Source: a virus. From it: a stretch of DNA of 29,068 nt. The notes below the pieces were generated by a model that saw nothing but the letters and a program-made list of their open reading frames with translations, had not been told where the DNA came from and did not search any database. Both the position numbers and the translations under genes were made by a program. The stretch's first letter is position 1. Every line of letters begins with the position of its first letter. The stretch lies in IMG/VR virus record IMGVR_UViG_3300013125_000664; one strand, written 5' to 3'. This document shows, piece after piece, positions 10,611-11,014 of the stretch.

Positions 10611-10639
10611 TTGACAGGAATGGGGGAATGATATATAAT
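10611..10639 (+). promoter_or_regulatory. perfect consensus sigma70 promoter TTGACA-N17-TATAAT
   Basis: -35 ttgaca 10611-10616, -10 tataat 10634-10639. Confidence 0.7.
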
Positions 10640-10660
10640 TCAATATAGGAAGGCAGACCG

Positions 10661-11014
10661 ATGAAAGATAACAAATTGTAGGACTCGAACCACCATTTCT
10701 TCGTTGTTGTTCGCACAGATATCAGTTTAGAACAACAACTTGTCCAGGCCATTCATGCCGCTCATGAATCCGGCACCTATCTGACACCACCTAGCGACAA
10801 ATCAATCTCTGTAGTTGTTTGCGCTGTGAAATCGGAACAACAGCTTATCAACACTTTAGACAAAGTGGAATCGAGAGGCATTCGCACGATTTTGTTCCGA
10901 GAACCCGATATCGGTGGCGAAGCTACAGCTTTTGCGACTGAACCCATCCCAAGCGAACAGCGTCATTTGCTCAAAAGTTTGCGCCTTTGGAAAAGGGAGG
11001 AAGCAACATGTTGA
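10661..11014 (+). CDS. PTH2-family peptidyl-tRNA hydrolase interrupted by an in-frame TAG at codon 7 (10679-10681); needs amber read-through, otherwise a pseudogene. The standard-code ORF is only 10826-11014.
   Basis: SD AGGAAGG 7 nt before ATG 10661. Frame reads MKDNKL * DSNHHFFVVVRTDISLEQQLVQAIHAAHESG...EPDIGGEATAFATEPIPS, matching PTH2 hallmarks (VVVRxDL...AQxxHAA; C-terminal DAGRTQIAPGSxTVLAIGP). No ATG/GTG/TTG in frame between the TAG and the conserved core; 117 codons in total, as in archaeal Pth2. Confidence 0.55.

Follow-up and report, generated by a model that had tools for sequence, protein, structure and literature searches.

How would a virus make use of a gene whose reading frame meets a stop codon only six codons after its start? 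The question is raised by a gene related to the peptidyl-tRNA hydrolase family PTH2, located at positions 10661 to 11014 of IMG/VR record IMGVR_UViG_3300013125_000664, a viral DNA of 29,068 nucleotides (nt) that is referred to here, over its full length, as the window. The gene carries an in-frame amber codon (TAG) at codon 7 and follows a transfer RNA (tRNA) gene with the anticodon CUA. The sequence-only reading of this DNA had left two explanations, namely, a nonsense pseudogene or an enzyme whose expression is contingent on the adjacent suppressor tRNA. The comparative evidence argues for the second, as the TAG is conserved, a tRNA(CUA) gene is linked to it, and the protein encoded downstream is under purifying selection. 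These observations suggest that the TAG is a translational gate, such that the PTH2-like protein would be made only with an active phage suppressor tRNA, a reading to which we assign a probability of about 0.78. The elements of the locus, and the second PTH2 gene of the window, are as follows.

10505–10576, + strand: amber suppressor tRNA gene, anticodon CUA (ARAGORN)
10611–10639, + strand: sigma-70-type promoter TTGACA-N17-TATAAT, between tRNA(CUA) and the PTH2-like gene, matching the consensus at 12/12 positions
10647–10653, + strand: Shine-Dalgarno (SD) sequence AGGAAGG, 7 nt before the leader ATG at 10661
10661–10678, + strand: leader ATG AAA GAT AAC AAA TTG (MKDNKL, six codons)
10679–10681, + strand: in-frame amber TAG, codon 7, followed by a G; the proposed gate
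10682–11014, + strand: body with a PTH2 fold, 110 codons, DSNHHFFVVVRTD...EEATC, and the stop TGA (11012–11014)
28472–28951, + strand: canonical, uninterrupted PTH2 paralogue of 159 amino acids (aa), ending in TAG (PF01981, 86.8 bits; TIGR00283, 76.3 bits)

The interrupted gene and its relatives

The promoter, the SD sequence, the ATG at 10661, and the TAG at codon 7 had all been claimed from the letters of the window, and all were found. The promoter boxes lie at 10611 to 10616 (TTGACA) and 10634 to 10639 (TATAAT), separated by a 17-nt spacer, and shuffled versions of the region gave a mean of 2.8 promoter sites at a much looser cutoff of 9/12. ARAGORN also recovered the claimed suppressor tRNA with its CUA anticodon; from its 3′ end, there are 85 nt to the ATG, as proposed, and 103 nt to the TAG. 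Counting both stops, the reading frame from 10661 to 11014 has 118 codons. The claim that no alternative start follows the TAG was borne out up to the GTG at 10826, as no in-frame ATG, GTG, or TTG is present over that distance, and the three valines at the N terminus of the body are encoded as GTT GTT GTT. The intact paralogue at 28472 to 28951, which had likewise been predicted, is a clear PTH2 by its PF01981 score. No DNA-level match to positions 9500 to 12500 of the window was found among GenBank phages.

A homology search gave eight close relatives, with 51 to 98% identity, and the contig DNA was read for each of them. An in-frame TAG was present at codon 3 to 7 in all eight. The N terminus of L001 is that of the window, L002 reads MKDHKL-TAG, L010 reads ..DKL-TAG, and L004 reads MTHT-TAG, while MT-TAG is found in L003, L005/L006, L007, and L008/L009. 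Gene callers had begun these proteins at "VVR..." or had read the TAG as Q. A single-sequence scan of IMG/VR returned no confirmed relative, whereas alignment-based scans did find relatives, with 107 further loci (52 from metagenomes, 53 from IMG/VR, and 2 on contigs of metagenome-assembled genomes); tblastn against GenBank phages added 38 records. The gate was scored by walking in frame upstream from the invariant Arg-x-Asp, and the proteins were clustered at 90% identity, which gave 79 lineages.

As seen across these lineages, 51 of the 79 have an ATG, 1 to 10 codons, and then a TAG; in three more, the TAG comes after a leader that begins with GTG or TTG, and in one (L070), a TGA stands in place of the TAG. 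Five are unclear (three have a TAG as the nearest upstream stop, but with a leader that is long or truncated; of the other two, one shows several stops and the other a TAA). The remaining 19 have an ordinary start and are ungated, and these are the most distant members, at 27 to 37% identity. The TAG is therefore retained in 54 of 79 nonredundant family members, down to approximately 35% identity. The L070 sequence (IMGVR_UViG_3300022723_000240) reads MNKNTAYE-TGA-AQKHFFVFVRTD, with the stop at 2998, and no tRNA was detected within 3 kb of it. The TGA may be an opal version of the gate or may reflect a phage of a TGA-recoding host.

The gated lineages, 55 when L070 is included, share further features of the start region. 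The gate stop is codon 3 in 32 of them, and the next base is most often G (42), less often A (10) or C (3), and never T. Leaders have 1 to 10 sense codons and are poorly conserved (MT, ML, MA, MQ, MKDHKL, MLDRL, and others), and 46 of the 55 genes have an SD sequence of 4 nt or more ahead of the leader ATG. A perfect 12/12 promoter is present at the matching place in L002, L012, and L016, and 21 of the 53 gated lineages have a match of at least 10/12, a level reached by 5.6% of random positions. Contigs with the gated gene reach 463 kb, which indicates that many gated phages are huge.

Several lines of evidence indicate that the stretch past the TAG is translated in this frame. Between the stop and the invariant Arg are six residues whose pattern, Y/F/Y/V/F/V, is conserved while their codons vary freely; the Val at position −3 is encoded by GTT (13), GTG (18), GTC (13), or GTA (1), and the Arg uses all six of its codons. 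Conservation of the protein together with free synonymous change indicates selection on the protein in this frame, and since the Val codons vary, the GTGs that gene callers took as starts are not conserved as start codons. In 29 of the 55 gated genes, the window included, the segment that leads from the stop to the domain contains no ATG, GTG, or TTG. Every body is an open frame, of 90 to 144 codons, and has 33 to 40 invariant residues among close members. The terminator of the gene itself is TGA in 36 cases, TAA in 16, and TAG in 3.

The gated gene is also harbored by cultured phages. In Acinetobacter phage vB_AbaM_ME3 (here ME3), it reads MT-TAG, with a tRNA annotated as "anticodon CTA" 418 nt upstream, and in Cronobacter phage GAP32, it reads MAQ-TAG, with a "Sup-tRNA" 3.1 kb downstream. 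Pectobacterium phage CBB, Serratia phage BF, Yersinia phages fHe-Yen9-03/04, and several Erwinia phages match at the same place as GAP32, in which alone among the GAP32-like phages the stop was read directly; the region is unannotated in most of these relatives. Ralstonia phage RsoM2USA has ML-TAG inside an unannotated gap, and the 595-kb metagenomic phage LR756511 has MTH-TAG. Because Acinetobacter, Cronobacter, Pectobacterium, Serratia, Yersinia, Erwinia, and Ralstonia phages in culture carry the gene, the gate is directly testable.

The suppressor tRNA and the encoded protein

Of the 55 gated lineages, 38 have a tRNA(CUA) gene in the flanks that were fetched, compared with 4 of the 19 ungated ones (Fisher P = 3.9e-4). 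When loci with at least 2.5 kb on both sides were considered, the counts were 26 of 34 and 4 of 13, respectively, and CUA is the anticodon of 60 of the 157 tRNAs found in representative loci. Among the close homologues, tRNA(CUA) lies 50 to 320 nt upstream wherever the contig extends, and half a tRNA is present at the cut end of L004. The comparison of orthologous loci that the sequence-only reading had proposed thus gave a TAG kept in all close homologues and a strong linkage to tRNA(CUA).

The tRNA(CUA) of the window has the anticodon loop U-U-CUA-A-A, a G1-U72 wobble pair, and a weak, atypical D arm, and its CCA is not encoded. It is identical in L001 and has 81% identity to the tRNA of L063. 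Relative to the L063 tRNA, compensatory changes are seen in the T stem and in the acceptor stem, at pairs 3-70, 4-69, and 5-68. These compensatory changes indicate that it has been selected as a folded tRNA. An unusual 1-72 pair as a general block to the host peptidyl-tRNA hydrolase (Pth) was also considered and was rejected, as the pairs vary (G-U, G-C, and A-U).

In some huge phages from soil and peat, two or three tRNA(CUA) genes stand in tandem, with differing acceptor stems and discriminators (L029/L030/L079, 5315–5565; L047/L086, 4609–4927; L061/L101, 4038–4965). L061 additionally has a tRNA with the anticodon UUA, an ochre suppressor, and near the tandem genes, ARAGORN calls several tRNA-like genes with anticodon loops of 6 or 8 bases.

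Some ungated family members adjoin a tRNA(CUA) gene as well, namely, L099, L117, L102, L111, L095, and Mycobacterium phage IkeLoa, in which gene 151, annotated as "peptidyl tRNA hydrolase," is followed by gene 152, a tRNA(cta). This arrangement suggests a functional tie between the protein and the suppressor that goes beyond regulation. In IkeLoa (L128, approximately 3968–3976), an ATG-TAG lies directly before the annotated GTG start of gene 151, and the tRNA(cta) is 250 nt downstream; gene 151 was scored as ungated since the spacing of the ribosome-binding site fits the GTG.

The body of the window gene had been described as a complete PTH2 domain. The PTH2 fold was recovered, while the assignment to standard PTH2 was not: the protein scores 21.5 bits against PF01981, under the cutoff of 23, and 14.4 against TIGR00283, for which the cutoff is 82. 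Some family members just exceed the PF01981 cutoff (P0119, 31.5; P0153, 24.9). An AlphaFold model of the window protein has a predicted local distance difference test score of 74.9, and in a Foldseek search of the PDB, all ten top matches (E ≤ 0.001) are PTH2-family structures, with a probability of 1.0 and template modeling (TM) scores of 0.57 to 0.68. They include the entries 3erj, 2zv3, 1wn2, 1xty, and 1q7s, and the proteins matched include AF2095, MJ0051, PH1539, Sulfolobus solfataricus Pth2, and human Bit1. The family profile found no PTH2 among PDB sequences, and hhalign aligned the family with the canonical PTH2 of the window over 29 columns, in the central beta-alpha-beta only. As these profile and hhalign comparisons gave little, the relation to PTH2 rests on the subthreshold Pfam match and the match of the fold. 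Overall, the gated protein is a member of a separate PTH2-fold family, distinct from the canonical PTH2 of the same phage. The family is large; a profile search of 1.84 billion representatives gave 1,856 clusters at E ≤ 1e-3 and 524 at E ≤ 1e-10, and many representative clusters begin exactly at the first strand or carry M-x-Q.

Some ungated members have an N-terminal HD phosphohydrolase-like domain: P0054, P0150, XacN1 ORF364 (L119, 2473–3312), and RAS14 (L127, 3527–4312). The fusion was confirmed with Pfam HD for P0054 and is apparently present in XacN1 ORF364 and RAS14, based on the resemblance of their N-terminal halves. In XacN1, a GatB/YqeY-like "glutamyl-tRNA amidotransferase" is found 1.2 kb upstream of ORF364. 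The HD fusions, together with the ungated members beside tRNA(CUA), point to a functional tie to tRNA ends. In P0026, a predicted giant protein of 5,620 aa, 12 separate stretches match the PTH2-like profile.

A proposed translational gate and its alternatives

In the proposed mechanism, the messenger RNA would be made freely from the consensus sigma-70 promoter, and ribosomes would initiate at the ATG at 10661 and reach the UAG at codon 7. Where release factor 1 (RF1) wins at this codon, only a hexapeptide would be produced. Where the phage tRNA(CUA), as the putative decoder of the UAG, is present, matured, and charged, an amino acid would be inserted and the 117-residue protein completed. The amount of PTH2-like protein would depend on, and scale with, the amber-suppression capacity of the cell. 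Since the gate sits in a nonconserved leader, any inserted amino acid should be tolerated, and because the gate stands as early as possible, failed read-through would be nearly costless. In very short open reading frames (ORFs), the early position of the stop may also weaken termination.

We favor a version in which the PTH2-like protein belongs to a single module with the suppressor tRNA and the enzyme’s dose would be coupled to suppressor activity. The putative peptidyl-tRNA hydrolase might handle the products of suppression, such as peptidyl- or aminoacyl-tRNA(CUA) or the peptidyl-tRNAs of ribosomes that have moved past natural stops, or it might limit the charged suppressor by negative feedback. 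More tentatively, and at less than even odds, the two could constitute a complete circuit, in which tRNA(CUA) would be the sole route to the protein, the protein would deacylate or release the esters of that same tRNA, and the negative feedback would set the level of suppression. Such a circuit would explain why jumbo phages that use TAG as a stop keep "orphan" suppressor tRNAs and how they tolerate them. The purpose suggested as an example in the sequence-only reading, sensing of tRNA integrity in a conflict with host anticodon nucleases, does not follow from the present data.

Several observations weigh against a gate of this kind. The tRNA(CUA) of the window is atypical and falls under the Rfam tRNA threshold (26.8 bits, with its best score to tRNA-Sec). 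In 17 of the 55 gated lineages, no tRNA(CUA) is present in the available flanks, and L002 has none within 947 nt upstream; the absence in the 17 is weak counterevidence because most flanks are of 3 kb or less and some contigs are shorter. The acceptor stems and discriminators of the tRNA(CUA) genes are also highly diverse. The inserted amino acid thus probably varies, and this diversity fits a gate in a leader where the identity of the inserted residue is immaterial. In addition, 26 of 55 lineages have a GTG or TTG within the first strand, which is a possible weak alternative start. The last point concerns catalysis. The catalytic residues of S. solfataricus Pth2 are Lys18, in the GK..AQ..HA helix, and Asp86, in the D-x-G-x-T loop. 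By manual alignment, an invariant Gln of the gated family (QQLVQAxHAAHE) is apparently at the position of the canonical catalytic Lys, and His25 and the invariant E74-P75-D76, at the place of the catalytic Asp loop, are retained; the canonical PTH2 paralogue of the window keeps both catalytic motifs. Given the apparent Lys-to-Gln replacement, the hydrolase activity of the gated protein is not assured.

The main alternative to dose coupling is a temporal switch, in which the gate would delay the protein until the suppressor tRNA accumulates or RF1 is depleted and the protein would have no special relation to the suppressor tRNA. The strong promoters of host type that lie upstream point to early transcription and would leave translation as the step under control. 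Such a role has been proposed for recoded late genes, and the idea of such timing is established for recoded phages (Borges et al. preprint; theta-ribozyme paper). We consider a temporal switch rather unlikely here, as ungated members of the family adjoin tRNA(CUA) too, the gated gene always comes from one tRNA-related family, and a general timer would be expected to control several genes, whereas ME3 has one. ME3 was the single phage scanned as a complete genome (assembled from five fetched parts), and it has four tRNAs. An ATG, at most 10 codons, and a TAG precede 13 of its 303 open frames of at least 90 codons, and among those 13, the PTH2-like frame alone is without any downstream ATG. The scans of ME3 indicate that its one tRNA(CUA) has one clear target, 418 nt away.

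It is improbable that the leader is a separate mini-ORF and that the body is reached by reinitiation at a downstream GTG or noncanonical codon or by a low read-through that is independent of the tRNA. The GTG or TTG codons of 26 lineages do lie in the Val-rich first strand, where reinitiation might occur, and two-codon minigenes with strong ribosome-binding sites, such as lambda bar, are known regulatory or toxic elements. Nevertheless, any stop could end a mini-ORF, and yet TAG is the stop in 54 of the 55. A start codon beyond the stop is missing from 29 lineages, of which the window is one; where Val codons follow, they vary freely among GTT, GTG, GTC, and GTA, and the residues between the stop and these codons are conserved as protein. 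The strong linkage to tRNA(CUA) likewise speaks against a mini-ORF of this kind.

A general code in which TAG is a sense codon (code 15 or partial recoding), with no special role for the gate TAG, is very hard to sustain. A suppressor tRNA is present, public callers read the TAG as Q in homologues (P0005 and many M-x-Q N termini), and the tandem tRNA(CUA) genes of some soil huge phages could be taken in the same sense. However, TAG terminates 8 of 35 selected ORFs of the window, where only the PTH2-like gene requires read-through of a TAG, and the gain in coding density with TAG as a sense codon is, across loci, no greater than that of a control with TGA as a sense codon. In ME3, the standard code gives intact structural genes. 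When frames with 60 or more open codons on each side of a stop were counted in ME3, the stop was TAG in 3, TAA in 24, and TGA in 6, and all three TAG-split cases are explained by ordinary neighboring genes, so that there are no TAG-split genes. General recoding of TAG is absent in the window and in ME3. Across proteins of approximately 35% identity, moreover, the TAG always lies within the first 3 to 12 codons and never in the body, and the gated gene’s own terminator avoids TAG.

A recent nonsense pseudogene of a redundant PTH2 copy, for which the canonical paralogue in the window and the unannotated or truncated state of the region in GAP32-like and RsoM2USA genomes might speak, is refuted by the comparative data, with the stop at the same place in more than 50 lineages, an open body of 90 to 144 codons with invariant motifs and synonymous variation, and a retained promoter and ribosome-binding site.

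Known systems and neighboring features

The dependence of specific genes on one dedicated tRNA has a precedent in Streptomyces, where the bldA tRNA-Leu(UUA) controls TTA-containing genes whose products are regulators. In both cases, the codon would be the switch; unlike bldA, which reads a rare sense codon in a cellular genome, the present gate would set a stop codon against RF1 in a virus, and its target is a tRNA-related enzyme linked to the tRNA gene itself. An early in-frame stop in a translation-related gene is also found in prfB, whose product, RF2, is autoregulated through an in-frame UGA and a +1 frameshift and so senses itself. As in prfB, synthesis of the PTH2-like protein would report on decoding and termination at that codon, although the proposed decoder is a suppressor tRNA and not a frameshift. 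The third comparison is with the lambda bar minigenes, which are free-standing, act via peptidyl-tRNA drop-off, and are tied to Pth. Similarly, 32 of the 55 gated genes open as a two-codon unit (strong ribosome-binding site, ATG, one sense codon, and stop), but their two-codon unit runs on, without a change of frame, into a conserved protein.

Of the known systems, the closest is that of the recoded gut phages, in which a phage tRNA(CUA) also allows in-frame TAGs to be read. TAG is read as Gln (code 15) in crAss-like, Lak, and other gut phages (Borges et al. 2021/22; Peters et al. 2022), and their in-frame stops have been proposed to hold back translation until the suppressor is active. In those phages, TAG has lost its role as a terminator, and tens to hundreds of TAGs are spread over genes for late functions, structure, and lysis; in contrast, the family described here has a single 5′ TAG at a fixed position in one gene family, with TAG otherwise a stop. 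The Borges preprint has no mention of a peptidyl-tRNA hydrolase or of such a gated arrangement.

An engineered counterpart exists in a feed-forward "leak dampener" built with a suppressor tRNA (PMC7969014). In that circuit, too, an early in-frame TAG and a suppressor tRNA, there inducible, make the output conditional; the present case would be a natural and widespread counterpart. The setting resembles that of the jumbo phages of Iyer et al. 2021 (PMC7824862), since the window has an RNA ligase, a TROVE/Ro protein, and a canonical PTH2 and hence a context of tRNA and RNA repair. The PTH2 of that survey is canonical and uninterrupted, whereas the gated family of the window is a distinct paralogue under the Pfam threshold, and the survey mentions neither an amber codon nor a link to a suppressor tRNA for PTH2.

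Suppressor tRNAs were described in the papers on XacN1 (PMC5852040) and Summit (PMC9022506), where no target genes were found, and across the XacN1, RsoM2USA, and Summit papers, the targets are unidentified or only generic. Among open-access papers and bioRxiv preprints, we found no prior description of an amber-gated PTH2-like gene with tRNA(CUA). The present family supplies a conserved target for the "orphan" suppressor tRNAs of large phages with a standard code, namely, one family with one stop position that is linked to the tRNA. It would be a natural amber gate on a single gene, where genome-wide recoding and engineered circuits were known before, and it ties amber suppression to the fold of a tRNA-ester hydrolase. 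Standard annotation pipelines systematically truncate or miss the gated gene, and many database entries start at "VVR...".

The neighborhood in the window comprises an RNA ligase, a TROVE/Ro protein, an ADP-ribosylglycohydrolase, five tRNA genes, and the canonical PTH2. The features other than the tRNAs and the PTH2 genes are as follows.

4334–6889: 851-aa protein with major-vault-protein shoulder and repeat domains and an SPFH domain
11008–11028, + strand: mini-ORF MLTHFL-TAG, whose ATG overlaps the TGA of the PTH2-like gene
15895–16899: ADP-ribosylglycohydrolase
19093–20739: 548-aa TROVE (Ro60/TEP1-like) protein
25766–26800: RNA ligase

The 851-aa and 548-aa proteins, components associated with vault and Ro ribonucleoproteins, share this phage region with the RNA ligase and the ADP-ribosylglycohydrolase. 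The mini-ORF directly behind the PTH2-like gene is enclosed by a hairpin of GGGAGG (10995–11000) and CCUCC (11041–11045), for which a consensus hairpin is weakly supported. Its pattern, M-L-x-x-F-L-TAG, is conserved in L002 (1256–1276), L010 (approximately 338), and L011/L013 (approximately 3318). The mini-ORF was rejected as an amber-gated extension of the next gene, since it is out of frame in four of five relatives and in frame in the window only; a possible role is that of an amber-dependent leader or attenuator acting on the 116-aa gene that follows (11104–11454).

Some TAG terminators of the window are followed by open frame. The canonical PTH2 has 27 open codons behind its TAG, so that a suppressor would add 27 residues, and in two ORF pairs (23240–23587 with 23618–23845 and 24552–24815 with 24828–25223; TAGs at 23585 and 24813), the next ORF is in frame. 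In these pairs, an active suppressor may yield fusion proteins, with chance as the alternative. Finally, in one subgroup of relatives, an ORF of 91 to 95 aa is located between tRNA(CUA) and the gated gene (L003, 9676–9963; L005, 3315–3590; L007, approximately 7658–7925; L008, 964–1245); its product has an N-terminal hydrophobic segment, CxxC pairs, and a basic tail.

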